From the NCBI GenBank assembly GCA_026992635.1, contig JALWYU010000040.1, forward strand, positions 1,920-65,919: 64,000 nucleotides of DNA. The letters run 5' to 3'. Shown here piece by piece: positions 1-64,000 of the stretch (position 1 is the stretch's first letter; each line of letters starts with the position of its first letter). The DNA comes from Bacteroidota bacterium. Lineage in GTDB: Bacteria; Bacteroidota; Bacteroidia; JAADEI01. A program made the translations under genes and the position numbers. The notes under the pieces were generated by a model. It was given only the letters and a program-made list of their open reading frames with translations, was not told where the DNA came from and ran no database searches.

Positions 1-1567
1 CCACCTTGAACAACAAAATTCGTGTGCCATTGGGAAATTCCGCCCACCCCTCCAACGTATCCGTAAAAAACGGGTCATACCGGGCATACGCCACATCCAT
101 TGACAGCGAAACCACCCGCACCGTATCCGGAACCCACACCCACCCAAACACCAGATCCGACCACCAACCCTCCCGCACATCTTCAAAAAACGGATAAAAA
201 ACCGCAGGGCGCCAAACCGAATCCAAACCCACCAGCTGCATCAGCGGATACCACATCAACGACGAATCGCCACCCGACCACCACAAACCCTCCCAGACCC
301 AACCACGATCAACCAGCCATCCAACCGGAACCGTATCGGGCTCGCCCCCCAACCAGTACAACACCAGCCAATTATCCGCCAGCTCCGGATCAGAACCGCC
401 AACCGGATGTACCTCTACGTGCAACCAGCCAGACAACCCGTCAAGCCCACTTAAGGGCACAACCACCCACACCGAATCCACACCACACGAATTCAAAAAC
501 ACCGGCAACCGAACCGTATCACCCGCAAGCACATTCTCCGGCGAATCCAGATCCGCAACCACTTTCCACCCCACCTCTACACTGTCCAGCACATCACACA
601 GCACATTCAAATACCGAACCAGTAAATGCAACGCCGGCGGATCCTCCCTGAGCCACCAGGCTTGCACAGAGACATTACCCGGTGCAGGAACCGACCACCA
701 ACGCACACCCACCATATCCCGATAACGCAAATAAATCGTAGTCAGTGCCTGACCAACCTGATCCACAGACCAGTACCCACGACAGGTATCCCCAATCCGA
801 AAACCCAGCATGTAATTATGCATGGGATCAGGCAGGTCCGGCAACTCCAAACAGGAATTCCGAACCGTATCACACGGAAAACCTCCACCCCCCAACACCT
901 CACCCAAATCACATACACCCCGACGAAACGCACACGTCAATGAATCCGTCTGCATACACGAGGACACAACCGGCATACCCACACCCAACCACTCACCCAG
1001 CAAATACAAAAAAGCACGAACCGAATCCAGATACCGGTAATCCAGAACAATTCCCTGCACCCCCTCTGACAAATCCACAACCCCACCCCATAACGGCGAA
1101 TCCAATGCAGTAACCCAAACATTAAGGATATACCGCGCAAAATACGGATCACTACCACCCGACGACGAACGCGTAACCTCCTCCAACACCGAAAACGACG
1201 AACGACCCGTCACCCGATACTGAAACCACGAAACAGGCACCTGCGCATCTCCCACAAACTGCAGTGGCTTCAGTTCTATCGGCAATGGACACGCCACACG
1301 CCGCTCATGCTCAGGCAACAAACCAAAATGCGAAGTATCCACCACCCATCTATTCACCTGATCCAGCCAATCAGTCAGAGCGGACGGACTCACCGTCCAC
1401 GAACCATCACCCACCACATGAACATACACCGCCAGCGGAACACGTCCTCCCACAAATGGAACAGGCGCACGCGGACAACCACGTTCCTTCCCCAAAACCC
1501 CAACCCCCACACCTTGCCAGATCAGCCACCCCACCAGAGCCACACGCCACCAGCCTCCTAAACCCAT
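1..1567 (-). CDS. hypothetical membrane-anchored protein; 5' end complete, runs off the left edge (at least 522 codons); absent from the supplied ORF track
   Basis: Hand translation of the minus strand from the ATG at 1567-1565 stays open down to position 1. The N-terminus is hydrophobic (MGLGGWWRVALVGWLIWQGVGVG...) and the sequence continues ...FFEDVREGWWSDLVFGWVWVPDTVRVVSLSMDVAYARYDPFF... The other two minus frames are broken (only 63- and 73-aa ORFs). The start overlaps the upstream stop (TGATG). Confidence 0.55.
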   Translation of the reverse strand, partial: MGLGGWWRVALVGWLIWQGVGVGVLGKERGCPRAPVPFVGGRVPLAVYVHVVGDGSWTVSPSALTDWLDQVNRWVVDTSHFGLLPEHERRVACPLPIELKPLQFVGDAQVPVSWFQYRVTGRSSFSVLEEVTRSSSGGSDPYFARYILNVWVTALDSPLWGGVVDLSEGVQGIVLDYRYLDSVRAFLYLLGEWLGVGMPVVSSCMQTDSLTCAFRRGVCDLGEVLGGGGFPCDTVRNSCLELPDLPDPMHNYMLGFRIGDTCRGYWSVDQVGQALTTIYLRYRDMVGVRWWSVPAPGNVSVQAWWLREDPPALHLLVRYLNVLCDVLDSVEVGWKVVADLDSPENVLAGDTVRLPVFLNSCGVDSVWVVVPLSGLDGLSGWLHVEVHPVGGSDPELADNWLVLYWLGGEPDTVPVGWLVDRGWVWEGLWWSGGDSSLMWYPLMQLVGLDSVWRPAVFYPFFEDVREGWWSDLVFGWVWVPDTVRVVSLSMDVAYARYDPFFTDTLEGWAEFPNGTRILLFKV

Positions 1568-2709
1568 CACTCCACAACCTTCTTCCGCTTCTTCGGAAAC
1601 AAATACAACACCTGAATACCTGGCGTGCCCCAGGTACTGCTCAAGTCCATCTGCCACCGCCTCGGCGTAAACCGCAACCGATGAACACCCGCCATCACAC
1701 GAAACAAAACCCGACGAACCATCACCGTCACATGCAAAGACAAACTCCCCATCCCAAACAACAACACATCCAGGTTGTGCCGCTGGCGCGTCCGATCACG
1801 AATGCTCTCCAGCAGCAAAGAAGGACCTACACGCAAGCCCAGCCCCATCGCAATTCGTATATCCTCCGACCGATTCAACGCACGCGGCACCCAGTTGAAA
1901 AAATAACCCGTAAACGGCGAAAGATACACCGCACCAAACTCACGAAAATCCAGCAACATCGTATCCGACACATTCCGCAAACTGTATATGCCCATCTGAG
2001 CACCAATCAAAAACGAACCGCCACTCCTCTTTTGCCACTCGCCTAAACTCCATGCCGACCGCCAGCTGTACTTCCCCGGATTCAAAAAACCCGTAGTACG
2101 CAAAGTGATTTGACCCGCTTCAAAACCACGCAACACCACCGTGCGCCCACCCTGATAAGCATAAAACCCCTTCATCGTCGCCAGATCCACCTCTACCAGC
2201 ACAGCACGCAAAATCAACACCGGCAAATACAAACGAAAGCGCTGGCTCTCCGTACCACTGGACACACTTAACGTGAATTGAATCGCTGGTAGCCCACCCC
2301 ACTTCACCCACAAACCCAGCTGCGTCACGCGCCCATCCAGCAAAATTTCCCGATTCTGATCATTCCGAAACGAAAACACAAACTGATGCTCTAAGGTGTT
2401 GGACACCAAACCAACCGCACGACGCGGCGTCTCCACATAATTCAACTCTGACCCAGACCACGCCTTCAACCTCAACGAAAAACCATACAACAACCCACCA
2501 ACCAGCACAATACCACAGAGGAACTTTCTTGCTTGCCCCGCTATTTTACTCTGTAAAGAGCAAAGGATCCGAAAAAACCAACGATCAATGACCGCACCAC
2601 AAGAAGCCACCACTACGCCCCCCTCAGAAAATGCCTCCGTCAAACTCTCTGTATCCGTTGCCCAGCTCAAAGACATCCTTGCACCCGCCGAAAAAGTCAT
2701 TGCTCGCAC
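1567..2709 (-). CDS. Omp85/BamA-superfamily outer-membrane beta-barrel without a recognisable POTRA region; true start probably downstream of 2587
   Basis: YQGGRTVVLRGFEAG resembles the conserved Omp85 loop-6 RG(F/Y) motif. The sequence has a beta-strand-like alternating pattern and a hydrophobic segment KFLCGIVLVGGLLYGF. The first ~40 codons of the ORF are antisense to dnaN and are likely an artefactual extension. Confidence 0.55.
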   Translation of the reverse strand: MRAMTFSAGARMSLSWATDTESLTEAFSEGGVVVASCGAVIDRWFFRILCSLQSKIAGQARKFLCGIVLVGGLLYGFSLRLKAWSGSELNYVETPRRAVGLVSNTLEHQFVFSFRNDQNREILLDGRVTQLGLWVKWGGLPAIQFTLSVSSGTESQRFRLYLPVLILRAVLVEVDLATMKGFYAYQGGRTVVLRGFEAGQITLRTTGFLNPGKYSWRSAWSLGEWQKRSGGSFLIGAQMGIYSLRNVSDTMLLDFREFGAVYLSPFTGYFFNWVPRALNRSEDIRIAMGLGLRVGPSLLLESIRDRTRQRHNLDVLLFGMGSLSLHVTVMVRRVLFRVMAGVHRLRFTPRRWQMDLSSTWGTPGIQVLYLFPKKRKKVVE

Positions 2710-3820
2710 CGTTTTTATGCCCGTGATCCGCTGCTTCCTCTTTCGGAGTCAAAACCACACCCTGGAAGTGTTAACGACAAACATTGACCAATCTGTACGT
2801 GCAAAACTGGAATTGCCGCAACCTATTGAAAACCTGCAAATTGCCGTTCCCGCCAAAACCCTCATGGACCTCATCAAAACCCTGCAGGACGACCTCACCA
2901 TAGACCTGGAATTCCAGCAAAACCCACCTTCACTGACCGTCCACGCCCCCTCCGGACAATACCAGATCGGCGGAGAAGACCCCTATGAATTCCCCCAACT
3001 ACCCACACCACCCTCTGACACCCTCTATACAATCCCCGCTTCCGTCCTGCGCCTCGCCCTGGAAAGCACACTCTACGCCGCCTTCCGCGAAGAAGACAAC
3101 GTCCAGTTCCGACCACTCACAGGCGTCCTCTTCGAAAGCCACCCCGAAGAAGGCGTACGAATCGTCGCGTCCGATGTCCGACGACTCGTCATCTTCCCCA
3201 TACCCGAAGCCACACCCACCGAACAAAAGGAAATCATCATCCCACGTAAAGCCATCCAGATCCTCAAAAGCATTCTTCCTGCCAGCGATACACCCGTCTC
3301 TATCGCCGTAGACGAGAAAAACGCCTACTTCCAGATGGAACACCTCACTTTCATCACACACACAATCACCGAACCCTACCCCAACTACCGTGTCGTCCAG
3401 GAAGAATCACCCTTCCCCAACCAGATGCGCGCCTCCTTAGAAGACCTGGATCGCATCCTCAAACGACTCACACTCTTCGCCGGCAGTACAGGCATCGTGG
3501 AATTCCACCTTTCACCCCACCAGGTCATATTCAGCGCCGAAGACCCCGAACAAAATAACCGCGCCGAAGAACGACCTCCCGTAACCTACGAAGGCGAAGA
3601 ACTCACTCTCCGATTTGATATCAAATTCCTCAGCGAAGTCCTCAACAACTTCCCCGAAGACGACGTCATCATCGCCTTTGGCGGCATCGCACGACCCGTA
3701 GAAATCTATCCGGCAGACCCACAAGCACGACCCGTCAAAGCTTACACAATGCCCATCAAAGAAGAAGAACCCGTCGCCACCACACAACCCCAGCAAGAAT
3801 CCTCAGAGGACCAGACCTGA
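2588..3820 (+). CDS. dnaN: DNA polymerase III beta subunit (sliding clamp)
   Basis: 410 aa. VKLSVSVAQLKDILAPAEKVI matches the typical DnaN N-terminus. The three-domain length and ...LRFDIKFLSEVLNNF...IAFGGIARPVEI also fit DnaN. Confidence 0.9.
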   Translation: MTAPQEATTTPPSENASVKLSVSVAQLKDILAPAEKVIARTVFMPVIRCFLFRSQNHTLEVLTTNIDQSVRAKLELPQPIENLQIAVPAKTLMDLIKTLQDDLTIDLEFQQNPPSLTVHAPSGQYQIGGEDPYEFPQLPTPPSDTLYTIPASVLRLALESTLYAAFREEDNVQFRPLTGVLFESHPEEGVRIVASDVRRLVIFPIPEATPTEQKEIIIPRKAIQILKSILPASDTPVSIAVDEKNAYFQMEHLTFITHTITEPYPNYRVVQEESPFPNQMRASLEDLDRILKRLTLFAGSTGIVEFHLSPHQVIFSAEDPEQNNRAEERPPVTYEGEELTLRFDIKFLSEVLNNFPEDDVIIAFGGIARPVEIYPADPQARPVKAYTMPIKEEEPVATTQPQQESSEDQT

Positions 3821-3854
3821 TTCCCTCCTCCACCCCTCCTGGATTACACACTTC

Positions 3855-4940
3855 ATGTGGGCACTCCTGGAAGTACTCCGGAAAGTCTTCGCACCCACCT
3901 ATCGCAAGCACTGGCAACCCGCAATTGAACAGGCTCAACGCGAAAACCCCTGGTATATCCCACGACACATCCACATAGCCCTTAACGCATGGTATGAAGC
4001 CCTGGAACCCGAAAAAGTCCACCAGTGGCTCGCCGCCTACCCCTCCCTCCCTAACACACCCCCTGCAGAAAAGCCATTACCCACACTGGCAATTATCCCC
4101 GCCGCCAACATCCCCTTAGTCGGACTCCACGATATGCTTTGTGGCTTGGTTGCCGGCTACCAGATCCGCATCCGCTACTCAGAGCGAGACCGTACCCTCT
4201 ACCGATTCCTGTGGACAACCTGCTTTCAACACTTACCTTGGCTCCAAACACGCATCCACGAAGTAGAACGCCTTAAAAAAGGCGAATACCACACAGTGAT
4301 CGCTACAGGCACCTCACACACCGCCTCCCTATTCCAGAAATACTTCGCACATGTCCCTGCACTGATTCGCGGCACACGAACCAGCTGCGCAATCTTGTGG
4401 GGCGACGAATCCGACGACCACCTCCACAACCTGTGCGCCGACCTCTTCCTCCACTTCGGACTGGGATGCCGCAACGTCTCCTGCCTCATCGTCCTCAACG
4501 AACACACCCTGACACGACTCACACCCCACTTCCAAACCTACACCTACGTCCGACACCACGAACTCTACTTCACCAACTGGGAATACTGGTACGCCGCCGC
4601 ACTCGTAGAACGCCAACCCCACATCTACACACCCGAACTCATCCTCCGAAAAGATACCAACCCCTTTTCACCTATCGGTGTCGTCCACTTCTGGCAACCC
4701 GCCAACAACGAAGAACTACTCACCTGGCTCCACCAACACGCCACACACCTCCAGTGCATCGTCAGCATCCGACCCCTCAATGCAAACCTGCCCATACCTA
4801 TCGTCCCTCCGGGCAAAACCCAGTTCCCCAACCTCTGGGACTACCCCGACAACACCGATACACTCCAGTTCCTCCTGAACGTCCGAGAACAACTACTCCA
4901 GCAACCCACTGCACAACCCACAAACCTTCCCAACCCATGA
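3855..4940 (+). CDS. LuxC-family acyl-CoA reductase-like protein
   Basis: Motifs ANIPLVGLHD, VIATGTSHTASLFQKYF, GLGCRNVSCLIV, LQCIVS and GKTQFPNLWDYPDNTDTLQFLL match the Bacteroidota acyl-CoA reductase (LuxC-like) family as I remember it. Confidence 0.75.
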   Translation: MWALLEVLRKVFAPTYRKHWQPAIEQAQRENPWYIPRHIHIALNAWYEALEPEKVHQWLAAYPSLPNTPPAEKPLPTLAIIPAANIPLVGLHDMLCGLVAGYQIRIRYSERDRTLYRFLWTTCFQHLPWLQTRIHEVERLKKGEYHTVIATGTSHTASLFQKYFAHVPALIRGTRTSCAILWGDESDDHLHNLCADLFLHFGLGCRNVSCLIVLNEHTLTRLTPHFQTYTYVRHHELYFTNWEYWYAAALVERQPHIYTPELILRKDTNPFSPIGVVHFWQPANNEELLTWLHQHATHLQCIVSIRPLNANLPIPIVPPGKTQFPNLWDYPDNTDTLQFLLNVREQLLQQPTAQPTNLPNP

Positions 4941-6721
4941 CCACTTCTCGCAACCGCGAACTCGCCAAACTTCTTGCACGCATCGCCGATATGTATGAAT
5001 TTCTGGGTGGAGACACCAACCGATTCCGCGCACTTGCCTACCGTAAAGCCGCACAGGTTATTGAAAACCTCCCCGAAGACATCGCCTCCTACATAGAAAA
5101 ACACGACCTCCAGAAAGTCCACGGAATCGGCCAAAAAACCATTGAAAAAATCCGCGAATTCCTCAAAACTGGCACCATCAAAAAATACGAAGAACTGCGT
5201 AAACAGGTCCCCGAAGCCCTGATCCCCCTCATGGACGTACCCGGACTGGGACCAAAAACCCTGCGCCAGCTCTACGAAGCCTTCCACATCCAGACCGAAG
5301 ACGACCTCATACACATACTCAAGTCCGGCAAAGTCTACCAGCTCAAAGGATTCGGACCCAAAAAAGTCCAGAAAATCCTCCATGGACTGGAACTGCGCGC
5401 AACCCTCACCCAGCGTATGCTCTACTGGGAAGCACTCACCTTAGCACGCACACTCCTCCAAACCCTCCAAGACCGCATCGGTACACTGATCCAGAAAAGC
5501 GCTTATGCCGGCAGCCTGCGCCGGGGCAAAGAAACCATCGGCGATATTGACCTTCTGATCAGTGCCAGCCCCCAGCACCACACCACCATCATCCAAGCAT
5601 TCACACAACTTCCCGACGTAAAAGAAGTCCTCGCCGCCGGCGAAACCAAAGCCAGCGTTCTCGTCGGCGACAACCGCCGACAAGTGGACCTCCGACTGAT
5701 CCAGCCCCACCAGTGGGGCGCCGCACTCATGTACTTCACCGGATCCAAAAACCACAACGTCCGACTCCGGGAACTCGCCCGAGCCCACGGATGGAAACTC
5801 AACGAATACGGACTCTTTGATGAAGCCTCTAACAAACGCCTGGCAGGCACCACCGAAGAAGAAGTATTCGCACAACTCAACATGCAATGGATCCCTCCCG
5901 AAATGCGTGAAGACCAGGGCGAAATTGAACTTGCACTCAACCACCAGATCCCAAAACTCGTCTCCATCCAGGACATCCGCGGCGATATGCAATCCCACTC
6001 AACCTGGAGCGACGGCTCTCTCTCCATCCTGGAAATGGCAGACTACGTCCTCAAACATTTCCCCCACTACGAATACCTCGTTTTAACCGACCACTCCCAA
6101 GCCGTACGCATCGCCGGCGGACTCTCCCCAGAACAATTCCGACAGCAAAAAGAAGAAATCCAGAAAGTCAACGCCGAACTGGGTAGAGACTTCGTCAAAG
6201 CCGGGGCAGAAGTGGACATCCTCCCCAACGGACAACTGGACCTGCCCAACGAACTCCTCAAAGAACTGGACTTCGTCATCGCCTCCATCCACTCCCACTT
6301 CCAGCGCGACAACACCGACCGAATCATCCAGGCTTGCCTCAACCCCTACGTCCACGCTATTGGACACCCCACAGGCAGACTGCTCGGTACACGCGAACCC
6401 TACCCACTCAATATGGAACAGATCATAGAAGTCTGCGCCCAAACCGGAACCGCACTGGAAATCAACGGACAACCCGACAGAATGGACCTCAACGACCAGT
6501 ACGCACGCTGGGCACGAGAAGCTGGCGTTCCACTCATACTCAGCACCGACGCCCACTACTCCTCCAACTTCCACTACATGGAAATCGCCGTGGTCATCGC
6601 ACGACGAGCATGGTGCACACCACAGCACATCCTCAATACACGACCCTGGCAAGAAATCACCCTATGGAAACAGGAAAAAGCCAGCAAAACACAAACATAC
6701 AAAACCAAACGCCACTTCTGA
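4937..6721 (+). CDS. polX: family X DNA polymerase with C-terminal PHP domain (PolX)
   Basis: The N-terminus NRELAKLLARIADMYEFLGGDTNRFRALAYRKAA is Pol-beta-like 8-kDa/HhH. GSLRRGKETIGDIDLLI is the nucleotidyltransferase motif. The PHP histidines are present (HSTWSDG, LTDHS, SIHS, GHPTGR, STDAH). The ATG at 4937 overlaps the upstream stop (ATGA). The 180-codon extension from 4397 is Pro/Thr/His-rich and was rejected. Confidence 0.88.
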   Translation: MTTSRNRELAKLLARIADMYEFLGGDTNRFRALAYRKAAQVIENLPEDIASYIEKHDLQKVHGIGQKTIEKIREFLKTGTIKKYEELRKQVPEALIPLMDVPGLGPKTLRQLYEAFHIQTEDDLIHILKSGKVYQLKGFGPKKVQKILHGLELRATLTQRMLYWEALTLARTLLQTLQDRIGTLIQKSAYAGSLRRGKETIGDIDLLISASPQHHTTIIQAFTQLPDVKEVLAAGETKASVLVGDNRRQVDLRLIQPHQWGAALMYFTGSKNHNVRLRELARAHGWKLNEYGLFDEASNKRLAGTTEEEVFAQLNMQWIPPEMREDQGEIELALNHQIPKLVSIQDIRGDMQSHSTWSDGSLSILEMADYVLKHFPHYEYLVLTDHSQAVRIAGGLSPEQFRQQKEEIQKVNAELGRDFVKAGAEVDILPNGQLDLPNELLKELDFVIASIHSHFQRDNTDRIIQACLNPYVHAIGHPTGRLLGTREPYPLNMEQIIEVCAQTGTALEINGQPDRMDLNDQYARWAREAGVPLILSTDAHYSSNFHYMEIAVVIARRAWCTPQHILNTRPWQEITLWKQEKASKTQTYKTKRHF

Positions 6722-7342: not shown

Positions 7343-8053
7343 ATGACCACACACAAACCCCAACCCATTACCCGACAGTTTCAATCCTGGCTTACCCACC
7401 TCGCCCAACAAGCCAACCTGCCAATCCCCAACCACCTCATCAACGCACTCACACAGTTCGCCCACCTCCTCACCCAATGGAATCAACGTATCAACCTGAT
7501 CGCCCGCCAACCCCCAGAACAACTCCTCCATTTGCTGTGGCACGTCCACTTCCCCCATAGCCTCGCTCTACTGCCTTTCATCCCTGAAACCAGTGTTTTC
7601 CTCGTAGACGTCGGTACAGGCGCCGGACTCCCCGGCATACCCTTAGCTTGCACCCTCCCCCAAAAGCACTTCCTCCTGATTGACGCCCGCAAAAAGAAAG
7701 TGCGCTTCCTCCACCATGCTATCTACCAGCTCAAACTCGCCAACACCTGCCTGCAATGGGCACGAATAGAACACCTCCCTCCGCTAAATTGCGATGTACT
7801 CCTGGCGCGAGCCGTAGCCCCGCTCTCCCGGCTCCTCACCTGGGCAAACCACCATCTGCGTCCCGGCGGACATCTCCTCGCACTCAAAGGACCAGAAGAC
7901 ATCCCCTACGCACGCCATCTCAAAATCCAGACCCACTCCTTAGAAACAACCCTGCAACCCATCGCCGGAAACACCGCCACCGGTAAATACCTCTACATCT
8001 GGCAGAAACCTCAAACCGCCACACCACCCCCTCCCCTACACCACACCACCTGA
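7343..8053 (+). CDS. rsmG: 16S rRNA (guanine527-N7)-methyltransferase
   Basis: LLTQWNQRINLI..., the SAM motif VDVGTGAGLPGIPLA, and LLARAVAPLSRLL...LRPGGHLLALKG identify RsmG. Confidence 0.85.
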   Translation: MTTHKPQPITRQFQSWLTHLAQQANLPIPNHLINALTQFAHLLTQWNQRINLIARQPPEQLLHLLWHVHFPHSLALLPFIPETSVFLVDVGTGAGLPGIPLACTLPQKHFLLIDARKKKVRFLHHAIYQLKLANTCLQWARIEHLPPLNCDVLLARAVAPLSRLLTWANHHLRPGGHLLALKGPEDIPYARHLKIQTHSLETTLQPIAGNTATGKYLYIWQKPQTATPPPPLHHTT

Positions 8054-9888: not shown

Positions 9889-10000
9889 CTACCTATTTCT
9901 CCTCTTTCCCCTTTCTCTCAAAGTAGGGCACCCCAAAAATGCAAAGTGAACCTTTTTAGCCTTTTCCCATGCCCTACCCGTCCAGCAACCAAAACGCCAG

Positions 10001-10085
10001 TGCCCGGGGCGGGACTCGAACCCGCACGGGCTCATCGCCCACCGGATTTTAAGTCCGACGCGTCTGCCTGTTCCGCCACCCGGGC
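10001..10085 (-). tRNA. tRNA-Leu (anticodon UAA), long variable arm, no encoded CCA
   Basis: Manual cloverleaf. Acceptor stem GCCCGGG/CCCGGGC. Anticodon arm TCGGA-CTTAAAA-TCCGG. Variable arm TGGGCGATGAGCCCGT. T-arm GCGGG-TTCGAGT-CCCGC. Confidence 0.85.
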
Positions 10086-47630: not shown

Positions 47631-47647
47631 GCACCGCCCCGGTGAGC

Positions 47648-49416: not shown

Positions 49417-49570
49417 GTTTCCTTTGTTTTTCGGACAGACGCTCGTGAAACCACCAATTGCCCACACAGGATTTCCATAAATAAATTAACCACAACACAG
49501 AAAATGAAATTGCTTCCCAAAAACTTCTCCGGGAATTGCACGTAGCGTACACTCTGGTGAGCCGATCAAG

Positions 49571-50394: not shown

Positions 50395-50524
50395 CGCTCC
50401 AGGGTTGAACTTACCGGCTCTCGTGAACTCACCAAAAAACTCTGTCCGTGTGTGCCGTGGTTCTGCGCCGGCATTGCGCAAATAGCTATTGCAGTCAACC
50501 CAGAACAGGACACAGGATGCCCCA

Positions 50525-51586: not shown

Positions 51587-51598
51587 CGCCCCGCAGAT

Positions 51599-52477: not shown

Positions 52478-52620
52478 CGGATTTCATTAAGCAAGGTAAG
52501 GCACAAAGCCCACTCCAATTTGCACTGCAAACGATTGCTTCAAACAACACAAAGAGTCCAAGGCAATTGGCGCAATGAACAACGACGACGCCGACGAAAA
52601 AGAAGACGATGATGATGACC

Positions 52621-53034: not shown

Positions 53035-53052
53035 ACGAATGCATCGCTGGAT

Positions 53053-53505: not shown

Positions 53506-53622
53506 GGTCCCTCTTTTTTTCCTGCCTCATCAACAACTTACACACCCGATTTGGTATGGGAACGAAAAAAGGGCAGAAATGATTATTCCCTTCCAAAGGT
53601 GGAAGAAAAACCATGGGATGCA

Positions 53623-54942: not shown

Positions 54943-55002
54943 CAGACCGGGCGGCAGGCATACTCAACCGCCACCACCTCCCTCCAAGATTTCGCAGGGA
55001 AC

Positions 55003-56619
55003 ATGACGGAGCAACCAGTCGGAAAGGCAAACGACCATATCCGCCGGCTGATCCTGATCATCCTGGATGGATGGGGTTGTTCGCCCGACCCGGCACGCTC
55101 GGCAATTGCCCGCGCCCACACGCCTATGATGGACAGCCTGTGGCAACGCTATCCCCATTGCCGATTAACTACCCATGGCGAATCCGTGGGCTTGCCCCCC
55201 GGACAAATGGGCAACTCCGAAGTGGGACATATGAACATTGGAGCGGGACGCATCGTCTGGCAGGACATCATGCGCATCTACCGAATGATAGAATCCGGAG
55301 AGCTGGCACGCCACCCCCTTATTGACCACATCTGCCAGTATTTGCAGGTTACGGGTCGGGCACTCCACCTGTGCGGACTGACTTCTACGGGAGGCGTCCA
55401 TTCGCATGTAGACCACCTGCGCGCACTCATAGACATCTTTGCACAGCGGGGCGTCCGCCCTATCTACGTGCATGCTTTTACAGATGGACGCGATACAGAC
55501 ATTCATCAGGCTGGAACACTGCTTCCTCAGCTGGTCAGGGAATGGAATGGACGTGCACATCTGGTGTCTGTAATTGGGCGCTACTATGCGATGGACCGGG
55601 ACCGGCGCTGGGAACGAACACTGTACGCCTATCGGCTCCTCACATCGGGTACGGGCATCCCGGTTCGGAACAACGAATGGCACGCCGCCATCCACAAGCA
55701 GTACCAGGAAGGGATCACCGACGAGTTTTTACTGCCCATGGTTGCAGTGGATGAGCTGGGCGTACCCATTGGACGGATTCTGCCGGGTGACGTCCTCTTC
55801 TGCTTCAATTTTCGGAAGGACCGTTGCCGCCAGCTCATGACTGTACTCACGCAGCGGGCGCCCGACGGCTGGCACGACATGCAACCTCTGCCACTCTTCG
55901 CAGTAACCATGACGGAATACGATCCCACCTGGCAAGGCATTCACGTCCTCCTGCCCGACCAGGAACTGCACAATACCTGGGGGGAGTGGCTCGCACAGCA
56001 TGGACTGCGCCAGCTGCGCATTGCCGAAACGGAAAAATACCCACACGTGACCTACTTTTTCTCGGGGGGACGTGAAGAACCTTTTCCGGGCGAAGAACGC
56101 ATCTTGGTGCCATCCCCTCGGGAGGTTCCCACCTACGATCACAAACCCGAAATGAGTGCATACGAGGTGGTGGACGCCCTCCTTGCCCGCCTTAAAAAAT
56201 CCCCTTTGCCGGACTTCATCTGCCTGAACTTTGCCAATCCCGATATGGTAGGGCACACCGGTAAGATGGATGCGGTGATTCGGGCAGTAGAAGCCGTAGA
56301 TGACTGCCTCAAAAAAGTGCTGGATGCCGTTCTCCCACTGGGTTATCGGGCAATTGTCACGGCGGACCATGGGAATGCCGACGAGGTGCTCCAGGAGGAT
56401 GGTTCACCTCATACAGCACATACGACCAATCCAGTCCCCTGTATCTTTATTGCCCCGGAAGTGGAGTGCGTTGCCCAAGAGCAGGGTATCTTAGCGGATC
56501 TGGCACCCACTGGTTTGACACTCATGGGCTTACCCATTCCACCGGAAATGACCGGCAATGTTCTTGTCCGCCTAAGGCAGGGGGTGGCAACCCAACCTGA
56601 CAAATACCCGGTGCGGTGA
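55003..56619 (+). CDS. gpmI: 2,3-bisphosphoglycerate-independent phosphoglycerate mutase
   Basis: LIILDGWG, GNSEVGHMNIGAGRIV, GGVHSH, FTDGRD and TADHGNA are present. Confidence 0.95.
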   Translation: MTEQPVGKANDHIRRLILIILDGWGCSPDPARSAIARAHTPMMDSLWQRYPHCRLTTHGESVGLPPGQMGNSEVGHMNIGAGRIVWQDIMRIYRMIESGELARHPLIDHICQYLQVTGRALHLCGLTSTGGVHSHVDHLRALIDIFAQRGVRPIYVHAFTDGRDTDIHQAGTLLPQLVREWNGRAHLVSVIGRYYAMDRDRRWERTLYAYRLLTSGTGIPVRNNEWHAAIHKQYQEGITDEFLLPMVAVDELGVPIGRILPGDVLFCFNFRKDRCRQLMTVLTQRAPDGWHDMQPLPLFAVTMTEYDPTWQGIHVLLPDQELHNTWGEWLAQHGLRQLRIAETEKYPHVTYFFSGGREEPFPGEERILVPSPREVPTYDHKPEMSAYEVVDALLARLKKSPLPDFICLNFANPDMVGHTGKMDAVIRAVEAVDDCLKKVLDAVLPLGYRAIVTADHGNADEVLQEDGSPHTAHTTNPVPCIFIAPEVECVAQEQGILADLAPTGLTLMGLPIPPEMTGNVLVRLRQGVATQPDKYPVR

Positions 56620-59441
56620 GCCCGCGAAAAAAACTTCCAGACTGGTTGAAAGATCATTACTCGGGACAGCGCACATCGTCTGGAACACCGGAACGCGTGG
56701 CTTCCCGGGGGTCGGTGTCCGGTGAGCCCGGCTTAACGCCGCTAATGCGCCAGTACCTGGAAATCAAAAAGCAATACCCCGATGCGATTCTGCTTTTTCG
56801 CGTAGGCGATTTCTACGAAACCTTTTACGAAGATGCTGAACGCGTCTCCCAGACTCTGGGACTGACGCTCACACGGCGCAATACAGGGAGTGCCAGTGAA
56901 GTGCCCTTAGCGGGTTTTCCTTACCATGCTTTGGATACATATTTGCCCCGGCTGGTTCGTGCCGGCTTTCGCGTTGCCATTTGCGAGCAGCTGGAAGAGC
57001 CTTCGCCGTCCAAGCGTGTTGTTCGCCGTGGTGTGGTTGAGGTGATTTCACCGGGCACTGCCTATGGTGATCTGGCAGAGGCGCGTGAGCCTGTCTATGT
57101 GGCTGCCCTCTTTCCGAAGGGGAATCAGGAAGACGCTCCTGGCGGACTAGCGTACGTAGACATATCCAGTGGAGAGTTTCGCGTTCTTTCAGATACGCTG
57201 CGCGTGCTTGTGCAGGTCATCGGCAATACAGGCATTCGGGAAGTGCTCTGTCCACGGAGTCTATATCCACGCCTCCAAAAGCAATTTCAGGGACGCCTGC
57301 CACTCTATGCGATTGACGACTGGCGCTACGATGAGGAAGGGGCCCGCGACCTTCTCAAAGACCTGTTCGGTGTAGAAAGCCTGCAGGGTTTGGCTCTGGA
57401 CCGGTATCCGGAGGTGGTTCGGGCAGTAGGTGCACTGCTCAGTTATTTGCGCGACACGGGTCATGTGCCGCAACACCTGCAATTGCCTTCTTTTTTGCAC
57501 CTGAAACAATACATGTGGCTGGACCCCTTTACGATTCGCAATCTGGAAGTGATTGAACCCTTAGTACCGGAAGGTAAGTCGCTCTTTCAGGTGATTGACC
57601 GGTGTCGCACGCCGATGGGTTCACGGCGTTTACGCCAGTGGCTGGTCTTCCCGTTGATTGACCTGGAAGCCATTCAGCGGCGCCAGCGTATCATCCAGTA
57701 CTTTCTAACGCATCCTGAGGTTCGCACTGCGATCCAGGAATCGCTGAAGGATGTTGGCGATATAGAACGGTTGCTGGGCAGAATTGGCTTGAATCGTGCG
57801 CACCCCCGATTGTTTGTTCAGGTTGCCCGGGCATTTCGTCGCGTAGAGCAGATCCTGCACTGTTTGGTGGAAAACAAAGTCCTTCCGATTCCGGGTGAGT
57901 GGCTGGCGGTGGTTCAACGGTTTCACCGGCGTACCCTCCAGTTCTTTGTAGAGGATCCGCCGGCGGATACGACGCAGCCCGGGTACATCGCCTCTGGCGT
58001 GGACGCCCAGCTGGACGCCTATCGCCGGGTTCTGGAAGGGGCACGCGACCGGTTGCTTCGTCTTCAGGAAGAGGAAGCCCGCCGTACGGGTTTGCCGGTC
58101 AAGCTGGGTTACAACCAGGTGTTTGGCTACTATCTGGAAGTCTCACGCACGTACAGTGATCGGGTGCCGGACACCTGGATTCGTAAGCAAACGCTCCGCC
58201 ATGTAGAGCGATTCATCACCCCGGAACTCAAACAACTGGAAGAACAGATTCAGGAAGCCGAAATCAACAGTTTGCAACGTGAAAAGGAGTTGTACGAGGC
58301 GTTTGTCCAGGAGGTGAACACGAAGTTTCTGCCTGTTATCCAGGAGGTTGCACGCGCAGTTGCGGACGTGGATGTGCTCAGTTCACTGGCATCCTTAGCC
58401 TTAGAACGGAAATGGTGCTTACCGCGTTTCGTTCAGGAAAAGGGCATCACAATTCGCGGAGGCAGACATCCCGTCTTAGAAGTTACGCTTCCGGCTGATC
58501 GCCCCTTTGTACCCAATGACCTGCATCTGGATAGCAAACGTGCCCAAATCTGGCTGATTACAGGTCCCAATATGGCGGGCAAATCGGTTTTTCTCCGGCA
58601 AACCGCGTTGATTGTGTTGCTGGCACAGGTGGGTGCGCCGGTTCCTGCCGATGAGGTGCGCCTCAGCCTATTTGACCGGATCTTCTGTCGGGTCGGTGCT
58701 TCCGACAACATTGCCGCGGGGGCATCCACCTTTATGGTGGAAATGGCTGAAACTGCGGTCATCCTTAACAATCTGACCGAACGCGCACTTGTCCTCCTGG
58801 ACGAAATTGGCAGAGGCACCAGTACGTACGATGGCTTAGCCATTGCCTGGGCACTCGTAGAGTATTTGCACGATCACCGGACTCGTCCCTTAGTCCTCTT
58901 TGCTACACATTATCACGAAATCACGGAGCTGGGCAGGAAGCTCCCGCGCTGTCGCAATTACACGACAGAAGTGGAAGAAGCCGATGGCCGCCTCGTATTC
59001 CTTTATCGGATTGTGCCGGGCACGGCTTCGCGCAGCTTTGGCATTGAAGTGGCGGGTATGGCGGGTGTCCCACGTGCCGTTCTGGAACGTGCCCGGCAGC
59101 TCCTGGAATTCTTAGAGCGGAGGAAACGTCCGGGCGATGCCCTGCCGACACGCCGCCTCTATCAACTCCAGCTCTTTGCTGTGCAGGATCCAGCGACAGA
59201 AGCGATTCTCCGCGAGCTCCGAACGCTTAACCTGGACACGCTCCGCCCCATTGAAGCACTCATCAAACTTTACGAATGGAAAACACGGCTGGAGGGGAAC
59301 CTTTCCGCTCCCAAACCTTCTTATGATGTACTGAAAGCGGAGGGGCAAACTGGTGTATCGCGTGGGGATACGAATTCGTCTACTCCACCCGTTTCTTCAT
59401 CGGCATCTTCTTCGGAATCGCCGGAAAAATCCACGGCTTAA
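56616..59441 (+). CDS. mutS: DNA mismatch repair protein MutS
   Basis: TPLMRQYLEIKKQYPDAILLFRVGDFYETF, the Walker A ITGPNMAGKS, LLDEIGRGTSTYDG and FATHYHE are present. The GTG start overlaps the gpmI stop (GTGA). Confidence 0.95.
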   Translation: MSPRKKLPDWLKDHYSGQRTSSGTPERVASRGSVSGEPGLTPLMRQYLEIKKQYPDAILLFRVGDFYETFYEDAERVSQTLGLTLTRRNTGSASEVPLAGFPYHALDTYLPRLVRAGFRVAICEQLEEPSPSKRVVRRGVVEVISPGTAYGDLAEAREPVYVAALFPKGNQEDAPGGLAYVDISSGEFRVLSDTLRVLVQVIGNTGIREVLCPRSLYPRLQKQFQGRLPLYAIDDWRYDEEGARDLLKDLFGVESLQGLALDRYPEVVRAVGALLSYLRDTGHVPQHLQLPSFLHLKQYMWLDPFTIRNLEVIEPLVPEGKSLFQVIDRCRTPMGSRRLRQWLVFPLIDLEAIQRRQRIIQYFLTHPEVRTAIQESLKDVGDIERLLGRIGLNRAHPRLFVQVARAFRRVEQILHCLVENKVLPIPGEWLAVVQRFHRRTLQFFVEDPPADTTQPGYIASGVDAQLDAYRRVLEGARDRLLRLQEEEARRTGLPVKLGYNQVFGYYLEVSRTYSDRVPDTWIRKQTLRHVERFITPELKQLEEQIQEAEINSLQREKELYEAFVQEVNTKFLPVIQEVARAVADVDVLSSLASLALERKWCLPRFVQEKGITIRGGRHPVLEVTLPADRPFVPNDLHLDSKRAQIWLITGPNMAGKSVFLRQTALIVLLAQVGAPVPADEVRLSLFDRIFCRVGASDNIAAGASTFMVEMAETAVILNNLTERALVLLDEIGRGTSTYDGLAIAWALVEYLHDHRTRPLVLFATHYHEITELGRKLPRCRNYTTEVEEADGRLVFLYRIVPGTASRSFGIEVAGMAGVPRAVLERARQLLEFLERRKRPGDALPTRRLYQLQLFAVQDPATEAILRELRTLNLDTLRPIEALIKLYEWKTRLEGNLSAPKPSYDVLKAEGQTGVSRGDTNSSTPPVSSSASSSESPEKSTA

Positions 59442-59491
59442 TTGCAAAACTAAAGGGGAAGTGCATTTGCCAGCCTAAAAAATCTCCATTC

Positions 59492-60022
59492 ATGCAAGGG
59501 CACAGGATTAGAAAGCGACTGCGAGTTAGTGGAGTTTGGCTTTTGATGGCGGGTACACTGGGCTTGTGTGCGGGTATTCTGATAGGGGGGTGTCAGAATT
59601 CGCGTTCGGCACAGGACAGCAGTCAGATACCCTCTTCTGAGGAAGCCGGTTCTTCGGTGCGGGCTCCTTTGACCTCGCTCTCTTCATCCAGGAAAGATAC
59701 TTTGCCGTTGACGAATGTGGAATTTGATCAATATGTCGTGGATTTTGGCACGCTGACCTCTGGAGAGGAATTCACCTATACGTTTCATTTTCGGAATACG
59801 GGCGAAGCCCCCTTGGTAATTCAGGAGGTGCGCACTTCCTGTGGATGTACCGTTCCGGTTTGGCCGCGCAAACCCATTTTGCCGGGTGAGACTGGCGAGC
59901 TGACCGTCGTGTATAACAGTACGGGTCATCAGGGACATATCGTCCGGAAGGTTCTTGTGTATGCGAACGTTCCCAACAGTCCAATTGTATTGCAGTTGCG
60001 TGGCAACGTCAGTGCGCGCTAA
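59492..60022 (+). CDS. DUF1573-domain lipoprotein
   Basis: FDFGTLTSGEEFTYTFHFRNTGEAPLVIQEVRTSCGCTVPVWPRKPILPGETGEL. Confidence 0.8.
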   Translation: MQGHRIRKRLRVSGVWLLMAGTLGLCAGILIGGCQNSRSAQDSSQIPSSEEAGSSVRAPLTSLSSSRKDTLPLTNVEFDQYVVDFGTLTSGEEFTYTFHFRNTGEAPLVIQEVRTSCGCTVPVWPRKPILPGETGELTVVYNSTGHQGHIVRKVLVYANVPNSPIVLQLRGNVSAR

Positions 60023-60072
60023 AGGCTGAATTGGCATCATTTTACACGAATTTCATGCAGAAGGGTGGGTCC

Positions 60073-60531
60073 ATGGGTCGGATCCTCGCCTTAGATGTGG
60101 GGACACGCCGGACAGGCATCGCTGTGACCGATCCAGATGGACGCATTGCCCAGCCCTTCTACACAATTCCAACTGACCGTTTGCTTACCTGGCTCCAGGA
60201 GTTCTGTACTCGCGAACCCGTAGAAACGATTGTACTGGGAAAACCCTTAGATGCTCTGACGGGCGTGCCCACCCCCCTCTGGGAGCATGTTCAGAAGCTG
60301 GGCCAATGGATTGAGCGCACACTGAAGATTCCCGTCGTATACTGGGATGAACGGTTTTCCTCACGATGGGCAAAAGCCCAGATGCGCTATTACGGGCATG
60401 ACGGAGGGCAACGCAAAGGGCATGCCAAAAAGCGGTTGGGGCGCCCAACCAGAGACCCGTACAGTCTGAAAGATCAGCTGGCAGCATGGAACCTTTTAGA
60501 AACCTACCTGCAATGGAAACGGAGTGGCTGA
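60073..60531 (+). CDS. ruvX: Holliday junction resolvase-like RuvX (YqgF)
   Basis: MGRILALDVGTRRTGIAVTD...IVLGKP...DERFSS. Confidence 0.85.
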   Translation: MGRILALDVGTRRTGIAVTDPDGRIAQPFYTIPTDRLLTWLQEFCTREPVETIVLGKPLDALTGVPTPLWEHVQKLGQWIERTLKIPVVYWDERFSSRWAKAQMRYYGHDGGQRKGHAKKRLGRPTRDPYSLKDQLAAWNLLETYLQWKRSG

Positions 60532-61160
60532 CCACGGCAGCGGCGGAAGTACTGCCCATTGTGTTGTATGGTCATCCGGTACTCCGGCAAAAAGCCCGTC
60601 CAATTTCGCGGATTACACCGGCTATCCATCGGCTCATTGCGGCAATGGAAGAGACGTTGAGGCGAGCCGGTGGAATTGGCTTGGCGGCGCCACAGGTGGG
60701 CGTTCCCCTGCGCCTCTTCATCGTGAATACTGTGCCGGCAGGCAACCGAGTGGCGTTACCCAATGACCCGCCCCTCCATCAGGTTGTACTCAATCCTGAA
60801 ATTGTATGGCGCAGTCCAGAAACCAATGAATATGAGGAAGGCTGTCTGAGCATACCCGAAGTGTATGGTGTGGTCCGTCGTCCTGCCCGCGTGCGCCTGC
60901 GTTACTGGACGCCACGGGGCGAAATGCGCGAAGAGGAGTTTACGGGTTTGCCCGCACGCGTCATCCAGCACGAGTATGACCACTTAGAAGGAAAACTGTT
61001 CATAGACTATTTGCCTTCGCTGGTGCGCGTACGCCTGCGAAAAACACTCAAAGCCATTCAGAAGGGTCAGGTTTCGGTTGCGTATGCGGTGAGCCGGTCG
61101 GTACGCCTGCCTGTGTGGGCACAGGATCTGCTCGCTGAAAATCAGTCAAATAATCGTTGA
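60513..61160 (+). CDS. def: peptide deformylase
   Basis: GIGLAAPQVG, EGCLSIP and QHEYDHLEG are the three Def motifs. Confidence 0.9.
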   Translation: METEWLTTAAAEVLPIVLYGHPVLRQKARPISRITPAIHRLIAAMEETLRRAGGIGLAAPQVGVPLRLFIVNTVPAGNRVALPNDPPLHQVVLNPEIVWRSPETNEYEEGCLSIPEVYGVVRRPARVRLRYWTPRGEMREEEFTGLPARVIQHEYDHLEGKLFIDYLPSLVRVRLRKTLKAIQKGQVSVAYAVSRSVRLPVWAQDLLAENQSNNR

Positions 61161-61197
61161 CGGTAAAAAAGACAGCAATTCAATTCTGGCATTCTCC

Positions 61198-61980
61198 ATG
61201 GGGAACACCTTACAGGATGCGCCTCTGGATGTGAAACCTCAACTCTACCTGATTCCCACGCCGGTGGGCAACCTCTCCGACTGGACCTTTCGGGCGGTCC
61301 AGGTCATCCGTGAACAGATCACCATTCTCTTAGCGGAGGACACACGTCGGGCACGCATCCTCTTGCAGCGTTACGACTTAAAGGTTCCGCCAGGTGGCAT
61401 CTATTCCTTTTATCGCGAGAATGAGCATCGGCGCCTTCGCCAGGTCCGCCAATGGCTTCAACAGGGGGAAATTCTGGGGTACATCACCGATGCCGGCATG
61501 CCCGGATTTGCCGATCCGGGCTTTACGCTGATTCGCCTGTGCCTTCAGAAGGGGATTCCCTACACGGTTTTGCCTGGACCCTCTGTGATCTTGCCGGCAT
61601 TGCTTCTTTCGGGCTTTCCGACGGACCACTTTGCCTTTGGCGGATATTTTCCCCGGCGTCATCGCCAGCGTACCATAGCCTGGCTAAAGCAATTTCCGTA
61701 TACGGTGGTGTTTTTTGAAGCGCCCACACGGTTAGCCCGTACCCTGCTCTATCTGTATGAAATGCTGGGGGACCGATGGGTTGCTGTCGTGCGTGAACTG
61801 TCCAAGGTGCACGAAGAGGTTCGTCGGGGCAGGCTCAGTCAATTAGCCAAATACTATCTGGAGCATCCCCCGCGTGGCGAATGCACGTTTGTCCTGGCAC
61901 CGCCTGATTACCAGCCTTTCGCCAATTCGTCGTCGCAGTCCTCTGCCCGGAATGCGTTCCTGGATTCATCTCAGCCATGA
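61198..61980 (+). CDS. rsmI: 16S rRNA (cytidine1402-2'-O)-methyltransferase
   Basis: LYLIPTPVGNLSD...LLAEDTRRARILL...ITDAGMPGFADPG...FFEAPTR. Confidence 0.9.
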   Translation: MGNTLQDAPLDVKPQLYLIPTPVGNLSDWTFRAVQVIREQITILLAEDTRRARILLQRYDLKVPPGGIYSFYRENEHRRLRQVRQWLQQGEILGYITDAGMPGFADPGFTLIRLCLQKGIPYTVLPGPSVILPALLLSGFPTDHFAFGGYFPRRHRQRTIAWLKQFPYTVVFFEAPTRLARTLLYLYEMLGDRWVAVVRELSKVHEEVRRGRLSQLAKYYLEHPPRGECTFVLAPPDYQPFANSSSQSSARNAFLDSSQP

Positions 61981-63737
61981 CGCGTTACCGGTCCCCAGGA
62001 TGGAATCACCAGATTGCACCGTTTCGGTGGAAGACCTGGTACCTGTGGCTCGTAGCCATTATGGGAGGCATATTGATGGCTGTGGGCTGGGTGCCCCGCT
62101 CTGCACCCTTCCTGGTTCTTGTGGGGTTGATGGGTTTTTGGCTGCTCTGGTTCCAGAGCAAGCGTGCGCACCACTGGCTTGCCACCACTTACGTATTCTT
62201 GCTTTTGTGGAATGGGCTGACGACCTTCTGGATTTACAAAGCGACGTTGCCCGGCGCGTTATTTACTGTGGTTGCCAACGCATTGCTTTACTGGTTGGTC
62301 GTTGCTGTATGTGGCTGGTGGGTACGCCAAAACCTCTCTTTGCGTTTGGGGACGTGGTCGGTACTGGTCGGATGGCTCGCTATGGAATGGATTCACTTCC
62401 ACTGGGAATTGCACTGGCCGTGGTTAACGCTGGGCTTTGCCTTAGCACAGACGCCCTGGTTCGTCCAGTGGTATGAATGGACGGGTGTCCAGGGCGGGTC
62501 ATTGTGGCTGCTGGTGTTATCGCTGGTTGGTGTGCAAACGATTCACTGGGAACGGTCTGTGCATTTTCGTGGGCGTGCCGCCTTCTGGTTTGGGTTTTTG
62601 ATTGTGGTGCCTATTGCGATAAGCCTGTTCTTAGGATGGCGTGCGACCCATCTGTGGAAAGAAGGAGGACGTTGTCCGTTGCGCCTTGGCGCGCACATCC
62701 TGCAACCCAATGTAGATCCCTACAGTGAAAAATTTGTTACGCAGGCTGGTGTGCTGAATCGGGAGTTGCTGGCGTTAGCACGGGCATCTTTTCGGTCAGT
62801 GGAAGTGGATTCTGGTTTGCCCCAGCTGATCGTTACGCCTGAGACGGCAGTGCCTATTGGCATCTGGCTTCATAAAATTCAGCAGGATACATTGCTTTTG
62901 CCGTGGAGAGAATGGGCACGTCGCCACCCCTGTCTGCATATCATACTGGGTTTCAATGGCATGCAACGTTACACTCGTGAGACTGTCACGCCCACGGCAC
63001 GTGTCGTCCCCTTAGGTGGCGACACGCTCCGGTATGACGCTTTCAATTCAGCATTGTTGATTGCGCCGGACACCTGGTGGGTCTACCACAAAGCATTACT
63101 CGTCCCGGGCGTGGAAACCCTCCCCTGGCACAAATGGACTGCACCGCTGCTGGGTGATTTGATGCTGGATCTGGGCGGAATCTCGGGAACACTTGGTACG
63201 CCCACGGTATTTCCCCAGTTGCGTCTTAAAGTGAGGTCATGCAGTCAGTCCGGAAATTCACCTGTTCGTTCTTCGGGGCAGGGAAACGAACACGCATTGA
63301 CGATTCTGACAGTAATCTGTTACGAGTCGGTATTTCCCGAATACCTGCGTGATCGGCTGCACGACAGTACTGCACTCATTGCCATTATCACGAATGATGG
63401 CTGGTGGGGGCGAACCGACGGACATCGCCAGCACTTCCACTATGCACGGGTTCAGGCAATCACGTTTCGCAAATGGATCGTTCGCGCCGCCAACACGGGC
63501 ATTTCTGGCGTCATTGACCCACTGGGACAAATCATTGCACGGACCCAATATGACGAACAAACTTTCCTTTATCGGGAAGTACCGCTCTGTCCAGGTAAAA
63601 CCTTTTTTGCGCGTGTGGGCAATGCGATTGGTCGGACCGCCATCTTTCTCTGGGTGCTGTTGCTGGTCCTTACTGGTGTTGCACGGTTGAGTCAGCGTTT
63701 TCGGTGGCATCCCAAGGTTTGGCGCCGGCTGGATTGA
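61977..63737 (+). CDS. lnt: apolipoprotein N-acyltransferase
   Basis: A multi-TM N-terminal half is followed by a CN-hydrolase domain with ICYESVFPE and NDGWWG. The ATGA start overlaps rsmI. Confidence 0.85.
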   Translation: MTRYRSPGWNHQIAPFRWKTWYLWLVAIMGGILMAVGWVPRSAPFLVLVGLMGFWLLWFQSKRAHHWLATTYVFLLLWNGLTTFWIYKATLPGALFTVVANALLYWLVVAVCGWWVRQNLSLRLGTWSVLVGWLAMEWIHFHWELHWPWLTLGFALAQTPWFVQWYEWTGVQGGSLWLLVLSLVGVQTIHWERSVHFRGRAAFWFGFLIVVPIAISLFLGWRATHLWKEGGRCPLRLGAHILQPNVDPYSEKFVTQAGVLNRELLALARASFRSVEVDSGLPQLIVTPETAVPIGIWLHKIQQDTLLLPWREWARRHPCLHIILGFNGMQRYTRETVTPTARVVPLGGDTLRYDAFNSALLIAPDTWWVYHKALLVPGVETLPWHKWTAPLLGDLMLDLGGISGTLGTPTVFPQLRLKVRSCSQSGNSPVRSSGQGNEHALTILTVICYESVFPEYLRDRLHDSTALIAIITNDGWWGRTDGHRQHFHYARVQAITFRKWIVRAANTGISGVIDPLGQIIARTQYDEQTFLYREVPLCPGKTFFARVGNAIGRTAIFLWVLLLVLTGVARLSQRFRWHPKVWRRLD

Positions 63738-63950
63738 GGTGGCGGGGCTTGTTAAGTGTCCACTTATTTGCTTTGAGCGAGCACGTCAGAGTTGCACGAG
63801 CTGTACACCTGCTTGAAATCACTCCCCAAATTTTCGGACTGGAATTTTTTCTGGGAGATTTTGGTTAACTTATCTATGCTAACTTACCATTATCGGCGAG
63901 CAAAAGAACCTGGCAAAATCCTGGAGACATGGCAGGTTTACACTTACTTA

Positions 63951-63976
63951 CACACACACACACACACACACACACA
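63951..63976. repeat. (CA)13 dinucleotide microsatellite in an AT-rich intergenic region
   Basis: Read directly from the sequence: 26 nt of uninterrupted CA. Confidence 0.97.
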
Positions 63977-64000
63977 GCTGACAGGGAATCTGCTAATTAT

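Follow-up and report, generated by a model that had tools for sequence, protein, structure and literature searches.

Extreme strand asymmetry over at least 42 kb of an uncultured Bacteroidota genome stops, and does not reverse, at breaks of origin-type polarity

We analysed a 64,000-nucleotide stretch of DNA (the window; positions 1,920 to 65,919 of contig JALWYU010000040.1, assembly GCA_026992635.1) from an uncultured Bacteroidota lineage, and found that, over at least 42 kb, C is about twice as frequent as G on its + strand, independently of the direction in which genes run. The bias is a lineage-wide, mutational asymmetry that is independent of gene orientation and strongest at synonymous and intergenic sites. 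An earlier note, made from the sequence alone, had placed a reversal of this asymmetry near 46-49.5 kb; the skew instead steps down to approximately zero at ~42.4 and 50.8 kb, both outside that interval, and does not reverse. All results concern these 64 kb of the genome, which make up nearly the whole of the 66,182-bp source contig; the features discussed are listed in Table 1.

Between 1 and 45 kb, the bulk + strand has a GC skew of -0.324 and an AT skew of +0.203 at a GC content of 0.546, which translates arithmetically into roughly 36% C and 18% G; with ~24,600 G+C bases sampled, the standard error (SE) is ~0.006. In 2-kb segments from 1 to ~46 kb, the GC skew ranges from -0.14 to -0.42 and the AT skew from +0.08 to +0.42, and beyond ~51 kb the GC skew lies between -0.04 and +0.07. 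Among 143 background loci from many phyla, each at least 5 kb long, the absolute GC skew has a median of 0.05 and a maximum of 0.22, and the absolute AT skew does not exceed 0.13; the typical bacterial GC skew is ~2.5% (SkewDB, PMC8941118). These maxima, together with the small standard error, place the left-hand asymmetry outside the ordinary range and beyond sampling noise, in agreement with the earlier assessment that it is far above what is usual in bacteria. The four 60-nt samples that had been counted by hand were all reproduced exactly; the left GC skew of 'roughly -0.6' derived from them holds at synonymous sites but not in bulk (~-0.32).

At four-fold degenerate sites on the left side, the + strand consists of G.12, C.54, A.25 and T.09, giving pooled GC and AT skews of -0.64 and +0.46. 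Read on the + strand, the four-fold GC skew is -0.61 in + genes and -0.66 in - genes, a model fit assigns only ~+0.02 of it to the coding strand, and left intergenic DNA has a GC skew of -0.40 and an AT skew of +0.23; the proposal that the left + strand is C/A-rich irrespective of the coding strand is thereby borne out. Individual genes in the plateau have four-fold GC skews of -0.41 to -0.89, with the exception of zapA (-0.23). When third codon positions are separated by gene strand, a check that the earlier note had called for, the coding-strand GC skew comes to -0.51 for left + genes as against +0.65 for left - genes; the corresponding values are -0.12 and +0.24 at position 1 and -0.16 and +0.02 at position 2. 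Because positions 1 and 2, as well as amino acids, shift in opposite directions in + and - genes, the bias is both long-term and mutational. G and T increase jointly on one strand, and the four-fold GC content is equal on either side of the boundary (~0.66-0.67). Examination of distant relatives (L172, L171, L089 and, less cleanly, L082) showed four-fold skew that follows gene orientation, as in ordinary codon usage. This dependence is absent from the window, and a codon-usage or gene-orientation cause was rejected.

The gene set of the window, annotated with Pfam, is of Bacteroidota type: it includes PorP/SprF, a CHU_C type IX secretion domain protein and ExbB/ExbD, alongside dnaN, a family-X polymerase, rsmG, atpD, recA, recQ, lpxK, gcvH, iPGM, mutS, ruvX, def and lnt. 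The closest RecA homologues beyond the lineage are 63-68% identical, all named matches being Bacteroidota, and the closest MutS homologue beyond it is 49% identical. A MutS scan of species-representative genomes gave no match above 44% identity, so that the lineage was not found there, and an Lnt scan of JGI metagenomes gave none above 36%. The window organism does recur in two further assemblies, Logan SRR14510437 and ENA ERZ23491050, at 99.98-100% identity (L001, L170), and a sister species is represented by GCA_027048825.1, ENA ERZ23495399 and Logan SRR10312489. Sister and window are 73-89% identical per aligned segment (80-86% in long segments) and have a common gene order over 2.5-21 kb and 45.5-63.7 kb. 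Every assembly of either species carries the same skew: the absolute GC skew is 0.29-0.32 across the entire sister loci that correspond to the left plateau (L083, L084), the skew is lost at the identical gene junction in the sister (L087, L088), and the low-skew right block is repeated in a second assembly of the window organism (L170). Since independent assemblies and the sister species share both bias and junction, a chimeric join or sequencing artefact is excluded and the asymmetry is heritable and of mutational type. At four-fold sites, the p-distance between window and sister goes from 0.31 on the left through 0.35 in the transition zone to 0.36 on the right, which indicates that the left has no excess divergence.

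The asymmetry leaves a strong imprint on codons and proteins. Third codon bases are 73% C or A in left + genes and 81% G or T in left - genes. In left - genes as compared with left + genes, Val makes up 9.5% versus 4.5% of residues (ratio 2.08) and Gly 8.7% versus 6.0% (1.44), and the opposite trend is seen for Pro (4.5% versus 7.3%; 0.61), Thr (4.3% versus 7.7%; 0.56), His (1.7% versus 3.8%; 0.45) and Gln (4.0% versus 6.2%; 0.65). These values agree with the C/A-ending codons and the Pro/Thr/His/Gln-rich proteins first noticed in left + genes, and with the Val and Gly enrichment reported for left - genes; the Trp and Phe enrichment reported with it was not recovered (ratios 0.61 and 1.10). 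Two core proteins illustrate the effect. DnaN, whose gene has a four-fold GC skew of -0.75, contains 25.6% Pro, Thr, His and Gln as against 12-17% in homologues outside the lineage, and RecA (four-fold GC skew -0.89 on the + strand) stands out among 121 RecA sequences as the extreme G/T-type outlier, with an amino-acid G/T-minus-C/A index ~4.7 standard deviations above its homologues. The two are therefore outliers in opposite compositional directions among their respective homologues, meaning that proteins of one genome diverge in opposite directions according to coding strand; DnaN shares just 29-31% identity with its closest homologue beyond the lineage, whereas RecA keeps 68%. MutS, from the right side, is only mildly shifted in amino-acid composition. 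The skewed and unskewed parts of one such genome could mislead composition-based binning and phylogeny.

Gene calling is affected as well. Depletion of stop codons had been noted to create phantom open reading frames (ORFs), and gene-less open frames of at least 150 codons do occur at 7.1 per 10 kb on the left + strand, compared with 1.5-2.3 elsewhere. In the sister (L084 9188-12413), the ENA annotation calls short ORFs opposite polX and its upstream neighbour, and the NCBI annotation calls both genes. The L084 sequence matches L083 without mismatches except for one 8-base gap; the apparently novel L084 genes were rejected as ORFs called on matching sequence, and they provide a practical case of annotation misled by skew.

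Having described the left side, we turn to the shape and place of its loss. Beyond 50.8 kb, four-fold sites consist of G.34, C.33, A.155 and T.17, and the four-fold GC skew on the + strand is +0.03 in + genes and -0.04 in - genes. As these values track gene strand, the right-side skew is a coding-strand effect and nothing more, contrary to the suggestion that the right side is G/T-rich irrespective of coding strand. Maximum-likelihood fits to G versus C at four-fold sites, compared by the Akaike information criterion (AIC), favour an asymmetric change from -0.66 to +0.04 (AIC 6260) over a single step with a coding-strand term (6279) and a symmetric reversal (6286); the symmetric-sigmoid reversal, 26 units worse and in need of a scale length of ~17 kb, was discarded for G versus C. 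The T versus A data are fitted equally well by symmetric and asymmetric sigmoids. Over 28-64 kb, keto versus amino bases are best described by two steps, with breaks at 42.4 and 50.8 kb and four-fold keto levels of -0.62, -0.33 and +0.06; this model is ahead of a linear ramp by 5 AIC units, of a logistic ramp by 8 and of a single step by 57. The intermediate composition of the 42.4-50.8 kb block is also seen in the sister species. The cumulative G-C minimum falls at 56.2 kb, and across 54-63 kb the four-fold GC skew moves upward, from -0.11 in the aminotransferase gene to +0.15 in lnt. The plateau is flat over 42 kb with no gradient seen, although a window of this length leaves room for a long-range gradient.

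Comparison of slowly changing sites (codon positions 1 and 2) with fast ones (four-fold) in terms of keto skew distinguishes the three regions. The plateau, up to 42.4 kb, has values of -0.107 at positions 1 and 2 and -0.600 at four-fold sites; the middle block (42.4-50.8 kb) has -0.131 and -0.334, and the right block +0.021 and +0.050. With its slow-site signature full and its fast sites half relaxed, the middle block suggests a fairly recent exit from the extreme regime. The right block seems to have reached a long-term equilibrium in which asymmetry is slight or absent, because its positions 1 and 2 lie at the midpoint of the two left gene classes, with no lag, and because both species keep near-zero skew there despite 36% four-fold divergence; by an F81-type estimate, left-type pressure over that divergence would have shifted the skew by ~0.2. 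Within the plateau, the zapA-like gene and recQ form a synonymous-skew dip (four-fold GC skew -0.23 and -0.41) that is repeated in the sister (L083 1-4000). At the amino-acid level recQ is nearly free of skew; its keto skew, -0.03 at positions 1 and 2 and -0.39 at four-fold sites, reveals a lag opposite to that of the middle block, which suggests a more recent arrival or an inversion.

The general rule is that the leading strand of replication is G-rich, or G/T-rich, and under this rule the left-to-right change from a C-rich to a not-C-rich + strand has origin-type polarity. To this extent the earlier interpretation of the boundary as an origin stands; its expectation of a sign reversal does not, and hallmarks of oriC were not found. 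We tentatively favour, at something short of an even chance, a reading in which the boundary is origin-proximal, the rightward arm is only sometimes replicated rightward, and a replication-type asymmetry reaches mitochondrion-like amplitude. Ordinary replication-associated mutational asymmetry, with a G/T-rich leading strand, would thus have been pushed to an amplitude resembling that of mitochondria. The likely chemistry would be C-to-T and A-to-G change on the strand left single-stranded in replication, as G and T rise together at constant four-fold GC content. Forks would run always leftward through 1-42 kb, and this uniform direction would end at ~42-51 kb. The DNA beyond 50.8 kb behaves as though copied about equally in both directions, as might be expected from a partly one-sided origin, or from an inefficient origin combined with at least one other start site; alternatively, the right arm may be exempt from the bias. 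A more specific proposition, that the extreme asymmetry is a high-resolution record of fork direction on arms that are not mirror images around a point origin, produced by mitochondrion-like deamination of long-lived single-stranded DNA in what may be a thermophile, we regard as unlikely. In that proposition one arm would always be copied in one direction, and the neighbouring DNA in both, from a partly one-directional origin or from several inefficient start sites. Hints of thermophily include an IVYWREL fraction of 0.44 overall and 0.456 in right-arm proteins, and two tRNA genes with GC contents of 0.71 (10000-10085) and 0.66 (32808-32881); beside these, the Trp content is unusually high, up to 3.2%.

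A number of observations weigh against the favoured reading or limit it. No DnaA-box cluster was found in 42-53 kb at up to 1 or 2 mismatches to TTATCCACA, the usual consensus being assumed for this lineage, and the only perfect box lies within coding sequence. A low-GC scan detected no AT-rich unwinding element near the boundary, where the lowest-GC 100 bp sit in a ~100-bp spacer. Pfam and NCBIfam searches revealed no initiator gene among the unannotated ORFs at 47-53 kb, the matches there being a weak gluconate-dehydrogenase subunit, a dihaem cytochrome c, CopD and a CbiX-like protein. The window lacks dnaA; dnaN and rsmG/gidB are in it, 40-48 kb from the breaks, and this neighbourhood is ambiguous evidence. 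Unequal amplitudes on either side and two steps were found in place of the reversal looked for at an oriC. Moreover, the fork direction is taken solely from the general rule of a G-rich leading strand, and gene orientation lends no independent support, because on the left the two strands carry about equal shares of the genes. Of the right arm, only 13 kb can be seen, with gene orientation there confounded with position, and the two-step model is ahead of smooth ramps by only 5-8 AIC units. The 'recently changed' middle block rests on nine genes, at an estimated ~2.3 SE. Among C/T differences between the species, those with C in the window and T in the sister outnumber the reverse by 114 to 69 on the left and 121 to 63 on the right; the sister is thus shifted towards G/T on the + strand either side of the boundary, which is a poor match for mirror-image arms. 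The repair and replication genes that bear on the extreme amplitude lie outside the window, and we know of no established precedent among bacteria for a chromosome in which fork direction is mixed.

Other explanations account for parts of these data. If there were no origin here and the blocks beyond 42.4 kb had been reoriented by rearrangement or origin relocation and were still in compositional transit, one would understand the staircase profile with its discrete breaks, the middle block in which full amino-acid-level skew accompanies halved synonymous skew, and the presence at 51599-52477 of an ORF (unk292) that is mostly absent from the sister and opposite in skew; the converse lag of recQ shows that such transits do occur in this genome. 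Transit is nonetheless unlikely, as the right block retains no memory of a skewed past, being near zero both at positions 1 and 2 and at four-fold sites, MutS shows no surplus of the C/A-type amino acids (Pro, Thr, His, Gln, Asn and Lys), both species remain near zero after their 36% four-fold divergence, and the sister keeps the gene order across both breaks. Somewhat less probable again is an asymmetry tied to one physical strand, alone or added to a fork effect, with the boundary marking a second-strand start or the meeting point of origin and terminus. The amplitude and joint C/A versus G/T pattern, like those of mitochondrial four-fold sites, speak for it, as do the precedent of the bacterium Ch65 (discussed below) and the sister's G/T shift on both sides. 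A replicon copied in one direction should, however, keep the sign and size of its skew across the boundary, where here the skew vanishes; no gradient can be seen over the 42-kb plateau, and two additive components would have to cancel exactly by coincidence.

It seems to us improbable that the region at ~46-50 kb holds a canonical single oriC with a genuine, symmetric sign reversal whose right plateau lies beyond the window end. Such an origin would have the polarity observed, and it agrees with a cumulative G-C minimum inside the window, with dnaN and rsmG/gidB lying within 50 kb, with a symmetric sigmoid that is no worse than an asymmetric one for T versus A, and with the drift of four-fold GC skew towards positive values across 54-63 kb. 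It conflicts with the 26-unit AIC deficit and ~17-kb scale length of the symmetric G versus C model, with a right-arm skew equal to the coding-strand effect, and with scans that returned no DnaA-box cluster, unwinding element or dnaA gene. An artefact or trivial cause, such as chimeric assembly, foreign DNA, gene-orientation bias or codon-usage selection, has hardly any likelihood left. The source is a contig of a metagenome-assembled genome, in which equal GC content on both sides would hide a join of two genomes; yet the junction and skew profile recur in a second species and in assemblies made independently from other samples, on which ground a chimera or artefact was rejected, core genes occupy both sides, and the skew keeps its sign when gene orientation changes, unlike in the four relatives described above.

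Asymmetries of related kinds are already known. With Lobry-type bacterial skew it shares joint G and T enrichment, independence of gene orientation and greatest strength at synonymous sites, but it reaches 32% in bulk and 64% at four-fold sites where ~2.5% is typical, shifts Val, Pro, Thr, His and Gln about two-fold between genes on opposite strands, and has grossly unequal boundary sides. One-strand disparity of G and C has been described in the Microgenomates of the candidate phyla radiation (CPR), namely Ca. Chazhemtobacterium Ch65, Collierbacteria and Beckwithbacteria; Ch65 has 29.8% C versus 15.0% G on one strand along its entire chromosome, with no AT skew, a disparity that its authors read as one-directional replication (PMC7143001). 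The window resembles Ch65 in bulk amplitude, in coming from an uncultured lineage and in having protein-coding genes split roughly evenly between strands. It differs in its strong AT skew (+0.20 bulk, +0.46 four-fold), in an asymmetry that ends at 50.8 kb, and in belonging to another phylum with a gene set of free-living type. Mitochondrial asymmetry is linked to strand-displacement replication and forms a gradient. Animal mitochondrial DNA likewise has C/A-rich and G/T-rich strands, four-fold skews above 0.5 and affected protein composition; in the window, by contrast, the plateau is flat over 42 kb and gives way to steps, and a gene of the bacterial replisome, dnaN, is present. Finally, ~250 chromosomes have one arm whose skew is three or more times that of its counterpart (SkewDB, PMC8941118); these published cases, which are unexplained, are similar in that one side is strongly skewed and the other almost not at all, but they are complete chromosomes of ordinary amplitude, whereas here a 64-kb piece is seen whose sides are not established replichores.

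A literature search for extreme skew in Bacteroidota gave nothing specific, and an asymmetry of this size stands here beside an ordinary-looking gene set. If true genome-wide, it would be among the strongest strand asymmetries in cellular genomes outside organelles and a few CPR bacteria, would permit direct tests of what determines skew size (repair repertoire, single-strand exposure, temperature), and would allow a test of whether unequal arms reflect unequal fork usage.

Table 1. Blocks, genes and other features of the window (positions in nucleotides of the whole stretch)
Feature	Positions	Strand	Description
Extreme-skew plateau	1-42400		+ strand C/A-rich, - strand G/T-rich for both gene directions
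dnaN	2588-3820	+	Coded on C/A-rich strand; three Pfam beta-clamp domains, low scores
Family-X DNA polymerase (polX)	4937-6721		Pol beta-like thumb/palm and HhH domains
rsmG/gidB	7343-8053
recA	10185-11270	-	Coded on G/T-rich strand; Pfam RecA, 422 bits
zapA-like gene, recQ	20485-22889		Synonymous-skew dip inside plateau
PKD/DUF5122 protein gene	26418-28250		Internal ~156-nt repeats and an 18-nt repeat run in 27072-28228
Low-GC island	34700-37000		GC ~0.47; contains the AAA_15/AAA_21 ATPase gene
AAA_15/AAA_21 ATPase	35194-36660	-
Intermediate block	42400-50800		Synonymous skew halved, amino-acid-level skew full
Perfect DnaA box	43133
Tandem array	48449-48825		17 copies of a 22-bp unit, in intergenic stretch 48239-48860; ~2 kb left of the 50.8-kb break
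Lowest-GC 100 bp near boundary	49423-49522		GC 0.38
Low-skew block	50800-64000		Core genes gcvH, aminotransferase, iPGM, mutS, ruvX, def, lnt
unk292	51599-52477	-	292-aa ORF, no family match
Region after lnt	63738-64000		AT-rich spacer, then (AC)13 at 63950-63976; (CTCTT)n just beyond the window

Several local features deserve mention. Each unit of the tandem array carries the palindrome GTGCC-N6-GGCAC, of which 16 exact copies occur there and none elsewhere in the window (0.12 expected); the sister has only a few degenerate, scattered copies at this position (L087 2900-3190). It may represent a protein-binding site that has expanded, or a minisatellite; we do not take the array as evidence for an origin. 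Only 51983-52372 of unk292 aligns to the sister, at 73% identity, the rest being mostly without counterpart, and its four-fold GC skew of +0.24 on the + strand is opposite to that of its neighbours. The ORF, which is probably an insertion, includes one of the right-hand samples of the earlier note.

On the left, polX lies two genes downstream of dnaN, past an unannotated 356-aa ORF, an arrangement kept in the sister; its open frame extends ~540 nt upstream of the likely start because stops are rare on this strand. An apparent skew dip at 26-29 kb arises because the PKD/DUF5122 protein is rich in Gly and Asp, the four-fold GC skew there still being -0.63. The low-GC island was probably acquired horizontally and its skew is partly adapted (four-fold -0.43); the ATPase that it encodes is possibly a defence-type gene. 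The two M1 peptidases of the window have no sequence relationship to each other. Contigs run on past lnt for 115 bp in the sister, for ~340 bp in L170 and for no more than ~2.4 kb in the source contig, and the L170 break coincides with the microsatellites.

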